Source of the DNA: a virus
DNA: 38,017 nucleotides
Strand: one strand, 5' to 3'
Virus record (IMG/VR): IMGVR_UViG_3300045988_122921
Position numbers and translations under genes: made by a program. Shown here one piece after another: positions 88 to 37,508 of this stretch. The notes under the pieces were generated by a model. It did not search any database. It saw nothing but the letters and a program-made list of their open reading frames with translations, and was not told where the DNA came from. Within the stretch, counting starts at the first letter, position 1; each line of letters begins with the position of its first letter.

Positions 88-1221
88 TTAAAAATTAGCA
101 TAATTTGACAACTTATCAATTGCTTTTCTTTCAGAAGACTTGGTTACATGAGTGTAAATATCCATCGTGGTATTAACGTTAGTGTGGCCAAGTCTTTTCT
201 GCACATCTTTAATTGTAGCTCCCGATTCGAATAACAAAGAAGCATGAGTATGTCTAAATGAGTGAGGGGATAGAGATGTTTTCATTTCCGATGACAAAAG
301 AAAATTAATGTGTTCTGGATAATGTAAAGTGTTATTCTTTCTATGAAAAATAAGCTGTTTATCATTACTTTTAGTTTTAAAACCATATTTTAACAATTCT
401 TGCTTTTGATGTTTTTTCCAGACAATTAATTCAGATACAGTTGTATCATCAAGGCCTATGGTTCTATTAGAAGCTTTTGTCTTAGGAGTCGATATAATGT
501 ATTCCTTGCCTATTCTTGTAAGTGTTTTATTTACGGTTAATTGTTTGTATGAAATGTTAATATCTTCCCATGTTAAGGCGTATAATTCTCCTTTTCTGAT
601 TCCTGTAAATGCTAAGACACGGAATATTAAATAGTCTTGAAAGTTTAGTGTTTCTTTCGCTTCCGCAAGAAAATCTTTTAGTTCGGATAGTTCTAAAAAC
701 TGTTTCTTTTTTGTTTCATTTGTTTTATCTTTTTTTGGCATTACAACATATTGCATGGGGTTAATATCTATAATATCCTGAGCAACAGCATAGTGTAACA
801 TTTTTTGGGTTATTGATTTTAGTAGATGAAATGCTGAATATTCTTTACTCCATTTATTGACCGCTTTTTGACACATTAGTTTTGTTAATTTATTAATTTT
901 AATGTTGCCAAACTCTGGCAAGATGTGAAGCCTAAACATACGCTCTGTATGGCCTGCTGTGATAGGTTTAACTGTATTTACATATTGGGCATACCAAAGC
1001 TCGTATACGTCTTTAAACGTGCTGTAATTCTGTTTTACGAAACCTTTGGAATCCACTTCAAGTTCTAGCCTAGATAATGCCAACTTTGCTTCTTTCTGTG
1101 TTCTAAAACCACGACGTGTGGTGCGTCTGCTTTTACCCGTTACTGGATCAACACCTAAATACGCGTTGAACATATAGGCTGTTGATCCATCTTTTTTTGT
1201 ATATTTTTTTATTGAAGCCAT
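88..1221 (-). CDS. int: Tyrosine integrase (phage integrase family) with an N-terminal arm-binding-type domain
   Basis: C-terminal HSFRHTHASLL...LGHTNVNTTMDIYTHV gives the R-H-R-Y catalytic pattern. The start is taken at ATG 1221 (MASIKKY...), 9 nt after an AAGGAG RBS. The track ORF begins at 1230. Confidence 0.95.
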   Translation of the reverse strand: MASIKKYTKKDGSTAYMFNAYLGVDPVTGKSRRTTRRGFRTQKEAKLALSRLELEVDSKGFVKQNYSTFKDVYELWYAQYVNTVKPITAGHTERMFRLHILPEFGNIKINKLTKLMCQKAVNKWSKEYSAFHLLKSITQKMLHYAVAQDIIDINPMQYVVMPKKDKTNETKKKQFLELSELKDFLAEAKETLNFQDYLIFRVLAFTGIRKGELYALTWEDINISYKQLTVNKTLTRIGKEYIISTPKTKASNRTIGLDDTTVSELIVWKKHQKQELLKYGFKTKSNDKQLIFHRKNNTLHYPEHINFLLSSEMKTSLSPHSFRHTHASLLFESGATIKDVQKRLGHTNVNTTMDIYTHVTKSSERKAIDKLSNYANF

Positions 1222-1282
1222 ATCTAGCAACTCCTTTATTCAAATTTCATTGTGGAAATATTATCTAAAAATATTTCTAATC

Positions 1283-9768: not shown

Positions 9769-10293
9769 ATGACAAAGTACCCAACACAAGAATTAAAAAA
9801 CAAAAGAAAATTTCATGTGCAATTCATGAGTACAGAGGCAATGAAAAATATTTATGAGCTAGGATATCCCTTTGAATACTTCGAAGATAGTTGCCAATTT
9901 GCGATTGAAACGCCTGTAGGTGTCATTGATTACTTCGGGATAAATGGCACTTGGGTTGTCCGCAAAGGACAAGACCGAGGGAAAGGCATACGAAAATTGA
10001 AGCAGTACATTAAAAACAGAGTAGGTGATCACGTGGAAAAAGTAAAAGTAGTGAAATGTAGTGGATATCTGGATAAAGACGGTAACATCACTAATCAAAT
10101 TAAGCAGGCGATGCATTTTACAGACGATGAATTAGCGAATCTTGCTGCAGAAGTGGCAGGTGGAAAGGTCGTAAACGTTGTAATTCCACCAGAAAAGCCA
10201 AAACAATTACTTGAAAAAGTGAAAGAAGAATCATTTCAAGAAAAACCTAAAAAGAAAACCAAGAGCAATCAATCTTGGATGAAGAAGAAATAA
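9769..10293 (+). CDS. Hypothetical protein with a Lys-rich tail, 174 aa
   Basis: Track ORF. ATG 9769 follows GGTGGAAAGAG. Confidence 0.6.
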   Translation: MTKYPTQELKNKRKFHVQFMSTEAMKNIYELGYPFEYFEDSCQFAIETPVGVIDYFGINGTWVVRKGQDRGKGIRKLKQYIKNRVGDHVEKVKVVKCSGYLDKDGNITNQIKQAMHFTDDELANLAAEVAGGKVVNVVIPPEKPKQLLEKVKEESFQEKPKKKTKSNQSWMKKK

Positions 10294-17146: not shown

Positions 17147-17220
17147 TGGCGTGTAGCTCAATTGGTGAGAGCGGTTGATTTTTAATCAAGTACATGCAGG
17201 TTCGACTCCTGTCCCGCCAA
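17147..17220 (+). tRNA. tRNA-Lys (anticodon UUU), divergent phage copy
   Basis: Cloverleaf TGGCGTG-TA-GCTC-AATTGGTGA-GAGC-G-GTTGA-TTTTTAA-TCAAG-TACAT-GCAGG-TTCGACT-CCTGT-CCCGCCA-A. It has a 6:67 U/C mismatch, a 27:43 G/G mismatch, U32, and no encoded CCA. Confidence 0.75.
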
Positions 17221-23542: not shown

Positions 23543-24409
23543 ATGTCAATCAAATATTACACTAAACAATATGCAGGTATTTTGCCAGAACTGTTTGCTA
23601 AAAAAGCAGTATTTTTACGTGCTTTCGGAGGTACTTTACAGACAAAAGACGGAGTCTCTCAAAACGATACATTTCTAGATTTGAAAGTTACAGATACGGA
23701 CGTTGTTATTCAAGCATATTCGACAGATGAAAATGTAGGATTTGGAACAGGGACAGGCAGCTCAAGCCGTTTTGGTAAACGTAAAGAAGTTAAATCAGTC
23801 AATAAACAAGTTAAATATGAAGCGCCACTTTCAATTCATGAAGGTGTCGATCAGTTTACTGTAAATGATATTCCTGATCAAGTTGTAGCAGAGCGCTTAG
23901 CTTTGCATGCTGTTGCCTGGGCGCAACATGTGGATAACTTGTTAGGCAAAGCATTATCTGACAATGCAAGTGAAGAACTAACCACTACATTAGATGAAGC
24001 TGGTATTACAAAACTATTTTCTAATGCTCATAAGAAATTTGTTAATAACAATGTTTCTCAAAACGTTGCATGGGTTGCCTATGTTAATTCAGACGTTTAC
24101 GACTTATTAATTGATTCAAAACTTGCAACAACTTCTAAAAATTCATCCGCTAATGTTGATGAACAAACTTTATACAAATTTAAAGGGTTTGTTTTAGAAG
24201 AGTTACCAGATGAAAAATTTCAACCAAATGAGGTAGCAATTTTTTCAGCTGATAACGTAGGTGTAGCTGGCGTAGGTATTCAAGTAGCACGTGCTATGGA
24301 TTCAGAAGATTTCGCAGGCACAGCGTTACAAGCGGCAGGTAAGTATGGCAAATATATCCCTGAAAAAAATGCTAAAGCGATTATTAAAGGTGTTGCCCCA
24401 AAAGTGTAG
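23543..24409 (+). CDS. Major capsid protein (0-frame product; a longer form is predicted by -1 frameshift to 24477)
   Basis: Position after the scaffold gene, 288 aa, strong RBS. Confidence 0.85.
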   Translation: MSIKYYTKQYAGILPELFAKKAVFLRAFGGTLQTKDGVSQNDTFLDLKVTDTDVVIQAYSTDENVGFGTGTGSSSRFGKRKEVKSVNKQVKYEAPLSIHEGVDQFTVNDIPDQVVAERLALHAVAWAQHVDNLLGKALSDNASEELTTTLDEAGITKLFSNAHKKFVNNNVSQNVAWVAYVNSDVYDLLIDSKLATTSKNSSANVDEQTLYKFKGFVLEELPDEKFQPNEVAIFSADNVGVAGVGIQVARAMDSEDFAGTALQAAGKYGKYIPEKNAKAIIKGVAPKV

Positions 24410-24477
24410 CCCCGAAAGTTGGTAAACTAACGCCGACAACAAGCGGGGTAGTTATTGAAATGGAAGAAGGAGCTTAG
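24397..24477 (+). other. -1 programmed ribosomal frameshift module at the capsid gene 3' end
   Basis: Slippery C CCA AAA (24397-24403), a 6-nt spacer, and a bulged hairpin at 24410-24448. The -1 frame is open for 24 further codons (SVAPKVGKLTPTTSGVVIEMEEGA) to TAG at 24475-24477. Confidence 0.65.
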
Positions 24478-24492
24478 TCTCCTTCTTTTTTT
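24465..24492 (+). terminator. Rho-independent terminator or attenuator after the capsid gene
   Basis: AGAAGGAG-CTTAGT-CTCCTTCT (8 bp) followed by T7. Confidence 0.65.
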
Positions 24493-24506
24493 AGGAGGAA
24501 TCTAAG

Positions 24507-24911
24507 ATGTCCTATATTGATTTTGAAGAGTTTAAAGAGCTTACAGGCGCCACAGATGAATATAAAGATAACTTTGAAAAATATTTAGTAAAAGCCGCCG
24601 CAGCGATTGATAACGTAACGAATTACTTTTATCAGTTCAATGATATAATGAAAGATTCTAGGCAATTTAGAGTGAAACAGTTTAAACTCGCTCTGTGTGC
24701 ACAAATAATGTATTTTGTCGATGTTGGTGCGGATACGTATGAAAGTATCAACAATGCCCCTCAAAGCTTTTCAGCAGGCCGTACGAGTATTTCTAATGCC
24801 AGTCGCTACAATCCTTCTGGAAATAACGAAAGTAAGTCGTTAACTGCCGAAGACGTTTATTTGTATCTGGAAGGTACAGGTTTGTTATATCGAGGTGTTT
24901 CGTCATGCTAA
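24507..24911 (+). CDS. Head-tail connector (gp6/gp15-like)
   Basis: Position, size, and an AGGAGG RBS. Confidence 0.65.
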   Translation: MSYIDFEEFKELTGATDEYKDNFEKYLVKAAAAIDNVTNYFYQFNDIMKDSRQFRVKQFKLALCAQIMYFVDVGADTYESINNAPQSFSAGRTSISNASRYNPSGNNESKSLTAEDVYLYLEGTGLLYRGVSSC

Positions 24912-25970: not shown

Positions 25971-26449
25971 TGTTATTAAAAATGGATATCCAAATGTTTG
26001 CACGTGAAAAAAATGCGAAACGTGAACACTATATCGCTGAATATACACCAGGGAAAGAAACAGCTCCTACAGAAGATACGGAATGGTTACGACTAGCTAA
26101 ATATATCTCTACCATTGGTGACGATTCAGACGAAGAAACAGACGACACAGGTTTTTATGACGGTGATGGTACACCTGAAACAACGGTGGTATCAGTATCT
26201 GGTACGTATACACCAGAAGGCATGTACGATGCAGAAGACCCAGCACAACAATTAATTGCAAGTAAAAAATACAAATTAGGTGACGGCCGTAAAATCTGGC
26301 ATAAAGTCGTACAAACCAATGGTGATGTTTATATTGGACGTGCAACAGTTACAGGCATTAAGGCAGGTTCTGGCGATGCGACAGCATACGAAGAATTCGG
26401 CTGCTCAATTAAATTTGACACGTTGCCAGAAATCAGCCCAAAAGCGTAG
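25970..26449 (+). CDS. Major tail (tube) protein (0-frame product; a longer form is predicted by -1 frameshift to 26517)
   Basis: TAATG-coupled start at 25970 after GGGGGAAAAA. Located before the chaperones and tape measure. The track start at 25910 lacks an RBS. Confidence 0.75.
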   Translation: MLLKMDIQMFAREKNAKREHYIAEYTPGKETAPTEDTEWLRLAKYISTIGDDSDEETDDTGFYDGDGTPETTVVSVSGTYTPEGMYDAEDPAQQLIASKKYKLGDGRKIWHKVVQTNGDVYIGRATVTGIKAGSGDATAYEEFGCSIKFDTLPEISPKA

Positions 26450-26517
26450 CCCCAGTAGTCGACAAAATAACGCCGACTACAACTGGGGTCATCATAGATA
26501 TGAAAGAAGGAATCTAA
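26437..26517 (+). other. -1 programmed ribosomal frameshift module at the tail-tube gene 3' end (paralogue of 24397-24477)
   Basis: Same heptamer C CCA AAA (26437-26443), a 6-nt spacer, and a hairpin at 26450-26488 (7 bp, bulge, 5 bp). The -1 extension SVAPVVDKITPTTTGVIIDMKEGI ends at TAA 26515-26517. Confidence 0.65.
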
Positions 26518-26518
26518 C

Positions 26519-26971
26519 ATGGCGAGAGAATATATCGTTTATAAAGGTGAGGAAGTCGTTGTTCCGGCTAGTCCAAGCCCTTTAGAAATTATAGGCATTG
26601 AGCCCAATACGGATGTTCCAGCAGGAACGTACCAAGTAGGGTTTGTAGACGGTGGAGAGAAAGTAGATGTACCGGCATTTAAGACGTTACCGATTGCTGT
26701 AACTGGCTTAGAGTTTTCTCCTAAAACATCAACAGCAGATGCGGGTACTGCAGGTAGCCGACAAATCACAGCAACTGTCTTGCCTGAAAATGCAACCAAC
26801 AAAAAAGCAACCTATGAGATTACGCCTGAAACAGAAGGTCTTGCTGTCTCTGAAACAGGAAATATTACTTGGACAGAAGCGGTACCGGCTGGTGTTTATA
26901 CCACAACAGGAACAACAGAGGATGGTAAAAAAACAGCTCAACACACCTTAACATTGAATAATCAATCATAA
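26519..26971 (+). CDS. Ig-like (Big_2-type) domain protein; candidate virion decoration or adhesion protein
   Basis: ITATVLPENATNKKATYEITPETEGLAVSETGNITWTEAVPAGVYTTTGTTEDGKKTAQHTLTL is a Big_2 pattern. It has its own GAAGGA RBS. Confidence 0.75.
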   Translation: MAREYIVYKGEEVVVPASPSPLEIIGIEPNTDVPAGTYQVGFVDGGEKVDVPAFKTLPIAVTGLEFSPKTSTADAGTAGSRQITATVLPENATNKKATYEITPETEGLAVSETGNITWTEAVPAGVYTTTGTTEDGKKTAQHTLTLNNQS

Positions 26972-27025: not shown

Positions 27026-27433
27026 ATGAAAGCATTAGAAATTAACGTAAAACGCACAGGTTTCCCAGTCATTTTAGCAGGACATGAATTTTTCTTTGAT
27101 AGTTCACCAGAACATTTAATCGAGGTACAAAAAAACTATGAAGCGTTTGAAAAAGAAGTAGATTCGATTGAAGGACCCAATGAAGACGATGCAGATAGCT
27201 TGGACTTAGAGCCGTACAAAGAGTTGTTAGCAAAAGGGTATGACGTCATGTTAGGCGAAGGGACATTCGATACGTTGTATGCGGATATTCCAGACATCAA
27301 CGCATGGCTAAACGCTTTCTTTGATTTATACAACGGGATTGCCGATCAATTGGACGAATTCAAAGAGGAACAAACTAAAAATTCCCAACGCTTAAAACAG
27401 AAGTACTTGAAAAAAGTTAGTAAGAAAGGGTGA
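27026..27433 (+). CDS. Tail assembly chaperone (gpG analogue)
   Basis: An acidic 135-aa protein between the tube and tape-measure genes. Confidence 0.7.
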   Translation: MKALEINVKRTGFPVILAGHEFFFDSSPEHLIEVQKNYEAFEKEVDSIEGPNEDDADSLDLEPYKELLAKGYDVMLGEGTFDTLYADIPDINAWLNAFFDLYNGIADQLDEFKEEQTKNSQRLKQKYLKKVSKKG

Positions 27434-27438
27434 GCGCA

Positions 27439-28008
27439 ATGCGGTTAAACGATCCGCTGCCCTCTTTTTTTGAGTTTGAAGAGAAAGAGTATCCTCTAAA
27501 TCTTGCTTTTGATCGTGTGTTGGATGTTTTCGACGTGCTGTCTGATGACGGGATGAATCTTCCAGACAAGGTAGAGACTTGTATAAAGATTTTAGTTGGT
27601 GATGTAGGACTAGATATTGTATCTCAATTTGAGATGTTCAGAGAACTATACGATACCTATCTCGTCTTTGGTAAAAAATCAGAAGTGGTAACCGATGAAT
27701 TAGGAAATGTTATGCCGATGAAACCAGTCAGTAAAGATATGGACATTGTATTAGATGCAAAATACATTTATGCCTCTTTTCGACAAATAGGTATCAATTT
27801 ATTTGAGGAACAGGGCCGTTTGTCTTGGGAAGAATTTCAAGTATTGCTAGAATCGTTGCCAGATGACACACCTATTCAAAAAATTAAAAGTATCCGTAAC
27901 TGGAAACCGCAAAAAGGAGAAAGTACTGAACACAAGGAACAAATGAGAGAACTTCAAAGGCGTTATGCATTACCAAATTACGTAAGGGAGGAGGAAGAAG
28001 ATGGCTGA
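27439..28008 (+). CDS. Tail assembly chaperone, second ORF (gpT analogue)
   Basis: Lies in the -1 frame relative to the preceding ORF. Has its own ATG 27439 after GAAAGGG. The track start is GTG 27430. Confidence 0.6.
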   Translation: MRLNDPLPSFFEFEEKEYPLNLAFDRVLDVFDVLSDDGMNLPDKVETCIKILVGDVGLDIVSQFEMFRELYDTYLVFGKKSEVVTDELGNVMPMKPVSKDMDIVLDAKYIYASFRQIGINLFEEQGRLSWEEFQVLLESLPDDTPIQKIKSIRNWKPQKGESTEHKEQMRELQRRYALPNYVREEEEDG

Positions 28009-37434: not shown

Positions 37435-37508
37435 GGACCATTAGCTCAGTTGGTTAGAGCCAATCGCTCATAACGGTTAGGCCACAGGTTCGAGTCCTGT
37501 ATGGTCCA
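37435..37508 (+). tRNA. tRNA with CAU anticodon (elongator Met, or Ile2 if lysidine-modified)
   Basis: GGACCAT-TA-GCTC-AGTTGGTTA-GAGC-C-AATCG-CTCATAA-CGGTT-AGGCC-ACAGG-TTCGAGT-CCTGT-ATGGTCC-A is a canonical cloverleaf. It is not initiator-like (1:72 is paired, and there is no GGG/CCC anticodon stem). Confidence 0.9.

Follow-up and report, generated by a model that had tools for sequence, protein, structure and literature searches.

In Lactobacillus phage A2, -1 frameshifting is required in both a head and a tail gene, and the extension that it adds is an immunoglobulin (Ig)-like domain (reviewed previously). Recoding has also been reviewed for Listeria phages, which make long and short forms of the corresponding proteins: PSA uses a +1 shift at both genes, and A118 and A500 use a -1 shift in cps and a +1 shift in tsh. 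Here, we analysed computationally a stretch of viral DNA of 38,017 nucleotides (hereafter the window; IMG/VR record IMGVR_UViG_3300045988_122921), in which the major capsid gene and the major tail (tube) gene each end in a putative -1 frameshift site that would append a peptide of 24 residues, which we call the tag. We propose, with a probability of roughly 0.6, that frameshifting places these tags on both the head and the tail tube, that each tag is one part of an FN3 domain split between two genes, and that a small protein carrying the rest of this domain and a Big_2 Ig-like domain is tethered to both lattices.

The resemblance to A2 extends to the nucleotides. The A2 head gene ends in ACC CCA AAA GCG TAA and its tail gene in GCC CCA AAA GCG TAG, and both -1 frames read PKSV before entering a Big_2 domain. 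The capsid gene of the window ends in GCC CCA AAA GTG TAG and its tail-tube gene in AGC CCA AAA GCG TAG, and both -1 frames begin with PK followed by SVAPKVGKLTPTTSGVVIEMEEGA (capsid) or SVAPVVDKITPTTTGVIIDMKEGI (tail). The A2 pairs gp5A/gp5B (head) and gp10A/gp10B (tail) share with the window the C CCA AAA heptamer, its stop context, its position at the 3' end and its presence in both a head and a tail gene. We found, as in A2, the heptamer before the stop, a predicted downstream hairpin and an open -1 frame that extends the C-terminus, but not the complete Ig-like extension: A2 adds an entire Big_2 domain in the same chain, whereas the window adds 24 residues and has its Ig-like domain on a separate protein, encoded by the open reading frame (ORF) at 26519-26971 (hereafter ORF 26519). 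The sequence comparison supports the assignment of both sites to the A2 type of -1 frameshift.

An earlier note on this DNA, made from its letters alone, had given the Listeria phages as the precedent. Recoding at the 3' ends of cps and tsh is indeed documented, and A118, A500 and PSA share with the window the location of the recoding in the capsid and tail-tube genes; relatives of the window also use a +1 shift at a CCC next to the stop. The directions do not agree, since the window has -1 heptamers at both sites and not the PSA-type signal, at which tRNA-Pro slips by +1 on a CCC beside a stop codon or pseudoknot. Furthermore, A118 adds unlike domains to head and tail: the ORF after its capsid gene is HeH and the ORF overlapping its tail gene is Ig-like, so that it has no shared tag. 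A2 is therefore the nearer precedent.

The two modules of the window (Table 1) form a 75-nt direct repeat with 77% identity and a spacing of 2040 nt, and the 17-mer CCCAAAAGYGTAGCCCC occurs in the window in two exact copies, against 0 expected from 100 shuffles. The earlier note had described the capsid gene end with its X XXY YYZ heptamer, a bulged hairpin behind it, and a -1 frame of 24 codons whose peptide is paralogous to one at the tail gene. We recovered all of these features, including, on a codon by codon recount, 6 synonymous differences and 8 replacements between the two tags. The spacer between heptamer and hairpin is 5-6 nt at both sites, and the outer stems of the two copies show a compensatory change (CCCCG/CGGGG at the capsid site vs CCCCA/TGGGG at the tail site). 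The folding predictions make it likely that these hairpins are frameshift stimulators. The peptide across the capsid junction that had been put forward as a mass-spectrometry target would be lost in a tryptic digest, as trypsin cuts after K; the tryptic peptides of the extensions are LTPTTSGVVIEMEEGA for the capsid, and SVAPVVDK and ITPTTTGVIIDMK for the tail.

A search with the 17-mer, which needed an intact heptamer and 5' arm, found it in 108 viral contigs, many of whose loci are closely related, so that counts do not represent independent events. Nearly all copies lie at the exact end of a structural gene, which finishes in ...PKA or ...PKV and the stop. These gene ends are of many unrelated kinds, and the heptamer is always in the X XXY YYZ register. 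After the 17-mer, the -1 frame encodes a Big_2 domain, an HeH-like domain or a short peptide of 18-24 residues. The common layout of the RNA is the heptamer, a 5-nt spacer, a GCCCC...GGGG outer stem and a variable inner stem. Together with the identical context in A2, this distribution agrees with the twin -1 sites that the earlier note had predicted.

We then sampled 80 relatives of the ORF 26519 product, down to 42% identity. All 37 unique upstream junctions had the same layout: the preceding gene ends with a slip site and stop, and these are followed by a short tag and then by the ribosome-binding site (RBS) and start of the ORF 26519-type gene. A second count of such junctions gave 38 unique ones, each with a tag. 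The slip sites differed by lineage. Those for a -1 shift were C CCA AAA, G GGA AAG, G GAA AAG, G GGA AAA, G GGA AAC, a GGGG run (where the slip would be on G GGG in the ribosomal P site) and A AAA AAA. Sites for a +1 shift were found in Staphylococcus siphophages (CCC AGC TAA or CCC TCG TAA), in Enterococcus hirae phage EH93P1 (CCC TCG TGA) and in two metagenomic relatives (CCC TAA); the loci L206 and L207 have a +1 shift at a CCC-stop. The tag is fused in frame in the tail proteins of phages phiEf11 (ORF15) and SN10, and in ORF95 of phage K. These comparisons support a change of recoding mode among lineages with retention of the tag.

The tag peptide follows the pattern P-x-[VI]-x-x-[VI]-T-P-T-x-x-G-[AV]-x-I-x-[LM], and its length is constant within each lineage. 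Among 35 unique tag sequences, the ratio of non-synonymous to synonymous polymorphism (pN/pS) was 0.63 in the tag frame vs 1.01 and 1.11 in the other frames, and the summed column entropies of codon positions 1, 2 and 3 were 17.5, 16.8 and 28.5. All four synonymous codons occur at the invariant Pro, as they do in the T-P-T motif. The RNA structure is conserved as well. In all 28 unique tags, the native hairpin exceeded random synonymous recodings in stability (mean z of -2.1), with values of -2.0 and -1.7 for the capsid and tail hairpins of the window; this advantage was lowest in the GGGG-run lineages. When structures were compared in a common register, 76.8% of the cells were paired vs 31-54% in slid controls, and 18 cells had changed on both sides vs 8.7 +/- 2.3 expected from shuffles. 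These results are in line with the suggestion of purifying selection on the shifted frame on top of the RNA structure. The similarity of the two window peptides, which had been offered as its sign, is only partly informative: SVAP is coded by the 5' arm of the hairpin and the conserved G (residue 15) by its 3' arm, so that this similarity is partly imposed by the RNA, whereas the selection found at the codon level stands. Judged from these sequences, the tag is a conserved system and not a remnant.

The sharing of one short tag by head and tail, which had been singled out in the window, is the rule in this group. A hidden Markov model of the tag identified exactly two tags in 96 of the 109 tag-bearing locus strands. 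In siphophage loci, the two tags are ~2.0-2.5 kb apart, at the ends of the capsid and tail-tube genes, and only one of them precedes the small ORF 26519-type gene, mostly the one of the tail gene and sometimes that of the capsid gene. The exception to this single placement are three Kayvirus loci, where the tags are ~535 nt apart and two of the three loci have a small gene after both. Among the cassette loci with at least 3.5 kb of downstream sequence, the ORF 26519-type gene was present with all FN3-type tags (11/11) and most other short tags (17/21), and with none of the Ig-type (0/25) or HeH (0/3) extensions. Head and tail tags are more alike within than between genomes (permutation p < 5e-5 overall; 0.008 in the Enterococcus/Listeria-type subset), a likeness that represents concerted evolution, whose cause could be a common partner or gene conversion.

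The product of ORF 26519 matches phrog_341 ("major tail protein", a small Ig-like virion protein) in full length (residues 1-149, E 5.4e-47), and 71 homologues are named "phage tail protein" or "Ig domain-containing protein", some of them from Enterococcus faecalis. Several homologues open with a textbook FN3 sequence from strand C on. In L206, the capsid gene ends in ACC CCC TAA and its +1 frame encodes PNKPVNVDASNVTETSVTLAWD followed by a stop, a textbook FN3 A-B hairpin. When this tag is joined to the N-terminus of the next protein, the sequence matches Pfam fn3 (PF00041) with 46.2 bits (the curated cut-off is 25 bits) and spans profile positions 2-82 of 84. On its own, the half-domain matches positions 29-82, and the two pieces in reversed order match as separate stretches. 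Since the half-domain starts at position 29 and the tag lies at ~2-28, they form together one collinear domain. We also built a profile of 26 pairs of tag and N-terminus, with the pair of the window as first row (alignment A1). It aligned to the L206 pair collinearly across the junction (hhalign, probability 97.2%, E 4.7e-11), and against the PDB it matched almost only FN3 domains, a few of them along its entire length; with single FN3 sequences as targets, the hhalign alignment was confined to the region of strands E-F. These comparisons support the identification of the tag as FN3 strands A-B and of residues 1-58 of the neighbouring protein as strands C-G.

The structure prediction of this protein gives a further indication. 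The AlphaFold2 (AF2) model of the 150 residues, made from an alignment of 44 sequences, has a predicted local distance difference test score (pLDDT) of 94.3. In this model, residues 20-31, the equivalent of FN3 strand E, have no partner strand, which is consistent with a missing strand B. A Foldseek search with the model matched Big_2 folds of structural proteins of phi29, T5, lambda and Douge; this result is dominated by the Big_2 domain and holds nothing specific to the half-domain.

Two other ways of joining the tag to the protein were considered. Fusion to ORF 26519 by stop readthrough or a second recoding event is unlikely, because the frame offset is +1, +2 or 0 depending on the lineage and all the ORFs are preceded by an RBS of their own; in the window, the RBS is GAAGGA and the ATG at 26519 lies 1 nt past the stop of the tail tag. 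A covalent isopeptide bond is also unlikely, as the tag columns of alignment A1 contain no invariant reactive residue.

Enterococcus phage phiEf11 provides an indirect experimental hint of a frameshifted tag. The paper describing its proteins reported two capsid bands a few kDa apart and, speculatively, a -1 shift on AAAAAAA that would add 21 residues to ORF10. We find that this extension (IEAPKVESVIPTTDGASIVLS) is a member of the tag family, and that ORF16, encoded after the tail gene as in the window, is a half-domain/Big_2 protein. phiEf11 differs from the window in its heptamer (A AAA AAA) and in the tag of ORF15, which is in frame because the gene has one A more than its frameshifting relatives (L205, 5100-5230). 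The authors gave no explanation for the migration of ORF15 at 28-30 kDa vs 21.5 kDa. The predicted tag of ORF15 and the link of the tags to ORF16, both recognised from sequence, are new with respect to that paper.

According to the mechanism that we propose, some ribosomes on both mRNAs would slip back by one base on C CCA AAA, with tRNA-Pro and tRNA-Lys re-pairing on CCC AAA. The downstream hairpin would stall the ribosome, and the nearby 0-frame stop may contribute. Slipped ribosomes would bypass this stop and append the 24 residues, and the virion would contain two capsid forms (288 and 311 residues) and two tail-tube forms (159 and 182 residues). The lattice-bound tag and the half-domain at the N-terminus of the soluble protein would together build one FN3 fold over two chains, and the Big_2 domain would be tethered non-covalently to the tag-bearing subunits of head and tail tube, at a density set by the frequency of frameshifting. 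A single gene would thereby supply head and tail tube alike, and this would account for the presence of the same, co-evolving tag on both. The Big_2 domain would presumably confer weak adhesion to cell-surface carbohydrates, by analogy with the published interpretation of the Ig-like domains fused to such proteins in other phages.

Table 1. Positions of the predicted frameshift modules and associated genes in the window.
Feature	Position	Strand	Basis
Major capsid gene, 0 frame, 288 aa	23543-24409	+	phrog_840 major head protein, E 1.5e-135
Slippery heptamer C CCA AAA, X XXY YYZ register (capsid site)	24397-24403	+	sequence; same context in A2 gp5 and gp10
-1 extension of the capsid, 24 codons SVAPKVGKLTPTTSGVVIEMEEGA and TAG; predicted FN3 strands A-B	24403-24477	+	translation, tag-family conservation, hhalign to L206 A-B strands
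0-frame stop TAG (capsid), one sense codon past the heptamer	24407-24409	+	same layout in all cassette loci
Bulged hairpin, capsid site; outer stem GCCCCG/CGGGGU, inner stem GUUGGU/GCCGAC	24409-24449	+	minimum free energy -17.4 kcal/mol, z -2.5
Terminator-like hairpin GAAGGAG-CTTAGT-CTCCTTC and T7, directly after the capsid tag	24466-24492	+	read from sequence; consensus scan gave no call
Major tail (tube) gene, 0 frame, 159 aa	25970-26449	+	phrog_820 major tail protein, E 1e-60
Slippery heptamer C CCA AAA, X XXY YYZ register (tail site)	26437-26443	+	sequence
-1 extension of the tail protein, 24 codons SVAPVVDKITPTTTGVIIDMKEGI and TAA; predicted FN3 strands A-B	26443-26517	+	translation, tag family, hhalign to L206
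0-frame stop TAG (tail), one sense codon past the heptamer	26447-26449	+	sequence
Bulged hairpin, tail site; outer stem GCCCCAG/CUGGGGU, inner stem UAGUCG/CGACUA, 3-nt bulge	26449-26489	+	minimum free energy -19.4 kcal/mol, z -4.8
150-aa protein; residues 1-58 FN3 half-domain (strands C-G), ~59-147 Big_2 Ig-like	26519-26971	+	phrog_341, Big_2, AF2

Several observations weigh against this mechanism. The tag and half-domain of the window have no Pfam match of their own, and their assignment to FN3 is therefore by homology, through the profile comparison with relatives. A single-sequence AF2 prediction of the window tag joined to ORF 26519 was unusable (pLDDT 34). AF2 folds the half-domain confidently in the absence of the tag, so that completion by the tag may be unneeded. 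Mass spectrometry of phiEf11 found no peptides from the extension. At the RNA level, the RNAalifold consensus over all lineages is weak (6 pairs, -2.1 kcal/mol), because the stems occupy different registers in different lineages, and the 17-mer search, by its design, would have missed decayed cassettes. Finally, the co-occurrence of tag and gene and the concerted evolution of the tags would also be expected from shared descent and gene conversion.

The confident fold of the half-domain without its tag is also compatible with real frameshifting by which the tag acts alone, e.g., as a lattice-stabilising surface hairpin, or is what remains of an FN3 or Ig extension, the half-domain protein being attached, if at all, in some other way. 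The four short-tag cassette loci in which no half-domain gene was detected fit this explanation, as do the collagen-like or unrelated small ORFs that follow other short tags. A remnant, however, would not preserve its peptide among genera that differ in their recoding signal. Nor would a tag acting alone be expected to adjoin the half-domain gene with near perfect co-occurrence, or to supply just those FN3 positions (~2-28) that complete a half-domain starting at 29. We consider this explanation unlikely.

The frameshift could instead serve mainly for expression, if slipped ribosomes ended at the RBS or start of the next gene and coupled its translation, the peptide being incidental. The distance between the -1 stop and the next ATG is indeed very short at the tail site of the window (1 nt) and in L103 (2 nt), and this stop overlaps the RBS of the following gene in many short-tag loci. 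At the capsid site, the -1 stop (24475-24477) is inside the loop of the terminator-like hairpin, whose 5' arm frameshifted ribosomes would therefore meet, but the next start codon is 30 nt past this stop, beyond the T-run. The downstream genes have their own RBS, tags occur in frame without any frameshift, and the tag is under selection at the amino-acid level. Coupling as the main role of the frameshift thus seems to us quite improbable, while as a secondary effect it is compatible with docking. It is very improbable that there is no frameshifting and that the 75-nt repeat works instead as an RNA or DNA element (a stabiliser, processing site or recombination junction) with the open -1 frame as by-product: the cassette does mark mosaic junctions, with the same tag and gene after two capsid gene ends, and no Rfam family speaks to the role of the repeat, but every heptamer lies in register at its gene end, A2 offers an experimental precedent, conservation is specific to codon position, and +1 signals or in-frame fusions replace the -1 signals with the same resulting peptide.

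The cassette is found in other arrangements across phages. The 24-residue tag of the window and the connector gene occur after another capsid gene end (DYYDAIVFDNAKKAIYVSYVPKA and stop) in L020, L029, L042, L070, L071, L088, L091 and L097, and this type of capsid bears a full Big_2 extension in other contigs. Since the same tag and downstream gene follow two capsid gene ends, the cassette marks a mosaic recombination junction. A second lineage (L004, L021, L024, L034, L043, L050, L059, L064 and L086) has twin short tags, SVAPQSVKSEGIKGGVKLTAK and SVAPQSVKTIAKQGGELTIIAN, on the CCCAAAA cassette, 2284 nt apart, and after its capsid tag comes a small ORF whose N-terminal domain is weakly related. 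The tail site of L034 has a tag of the capsid type, suggestive of gene conversion. Further short -1 tags on the CCCAAAA cassette (e.g., SVAPEVGKAKAGETKVAK and stop), in L085/L105, L089/L094 and L093, precede different small ORFs, one of them with collagen-like GXX repeats; these sets may be further docking pairs or unrelated.

In Kayvirus phage K (L200, 831-2220), and also in Romulus (L202) and 812h1 (L198), three consecutive proteins look chained. ORF95 of phage K has an in-frame terminal tag, ORF96 starts with a half-FN3, continues with Big_2 and ends in a second tag, and the following ORF of 70 residues is a half-FN3 only. In 812h1, a stop codon interrupts the homologue of ORF96. In Lactococcus phage ul36 (L001, 5340-5620), an unannotated gap of 270 nt after the capsid gene codes for Big_2 in the -1 frame, and the sole candidate slip site is the non-canonical A ACA AAG. 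The corresponding stretch of S. thermophilus phage 9871 (L002, 5430-5621) is annotated as a separate "major head protein" of 64 residues.

Judged by its sequence, this DNA most likely comes from a prophage of E. faecalis. A megablast of the region against phage genomes retrieved no near-identical phage, and none of the capsid protein, tail-tube protein and half-domain had a match in a sequence search of the PDB. The capsid protein is 80% identical to the capsids of ul36 and of S. thermophilus phages 9871-9874, and the module around both genes also has an SPP1-type portal, a minor capsid protein and a scaffold. The ATG of the tail-tube gene (25970) is preceded by the RBS AAGGGGGA. The sequence AGGAGGAATCTAAGATG (24493-24509, + strand), 5' of the connector gene, resembles AGAAGGAATCTAACATG (26505-26521, + strand) with 88% identity, and the latter consists of the last part of the tail tag plus the first letters of ORF 26519. 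The stop-RBS-ATG junction seems to be part of the repeated module, which suggests that the cassette was copied along with a gene start.

Other features of the window include a tRNA-Lys(UUU) gene (17147-17220, + strand), which decodes the AAA codon of both heptamers and may bear on frameshift efficiency, or may simply serve an AAA-rich late region. A tRNA-Met(CAU) gene near the right end (37435-37508, + strand) could mark the attachment site or be part of the host flank, and an ORF of 380 residues at the left end (88-1230, minus strand) could be an integrase. The ORFs 27026-27433 and 27430-28008 (Phage_Gp15 family) sit between the tail-tube genes and the tape-measure gene. We saw no canonical slippery heptamer at their junction (27400-27440, + strand), and ORF 27430-28008 probably starts independently.

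We would give about even odds to a wider generalisation, in which the tag would be a natural docking tag with an FN3 domain split between genes and an occupancy set by the efficiency of recoding, in siphophages of Enterococcus, Listeria and Staphylococcus and in Kayvirus myophages, with three chained proteins in the latter and with -1, +1 or no frameshift as interchangeable means. A literature search that covered few subscription journals turned up no previous description of either a split FN3 or a docking tag in phages, and the structure paper on Brochothrix phage NF5 mentions neither frameshift nor decoration. If correct, our proposal would account for the very short frameshift extensions of capsid and tail proteins in phages of Gram-positive bacteria, such as the 21 residues of phiEf11, and for the small Ig-like gene that always adjoins tagged genes and that annotations routinely misname "major tail protein". 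One protein would decorate two lattices, and a ribosomal frameshift would determine how many copies are attached. The hairpin region is a clear example of one sequence under two constraints, those of an RNA stem and of a conserved peptide. The pair would also be a natural split-domain tag and catcher, usable for the display of cargo on phage particles. The layout offers a simple annotation rule for recoded genes in the very common prophages of Enterococcus, Listeria and Staphylococcus.

The completion of an incomplete Ig-like fold of one chain by one or more short strands of another chain is the principle of donor-strand complementation in pili and of the engineered SpyTag/SpyCatcher pair. The tags differ from SpyTag in that we saw no conserved isopeptide-forming residues, and the pairing in the window is predicted from sequence. 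Other likely parallels are the Ig-like domains, often frameshifted, described by Fraser et al. (2006), SPP1 gp17.1* and the C-terminal domain of lambda gpV: like the putative decoration of the window, they are Ig-superfamily domains displayed substoichiometrically on head and tail lattices, in an amount set by recoding. In all of them the domain is covalently attached, whereas in the window the fold is apparently split over two polypeptides.

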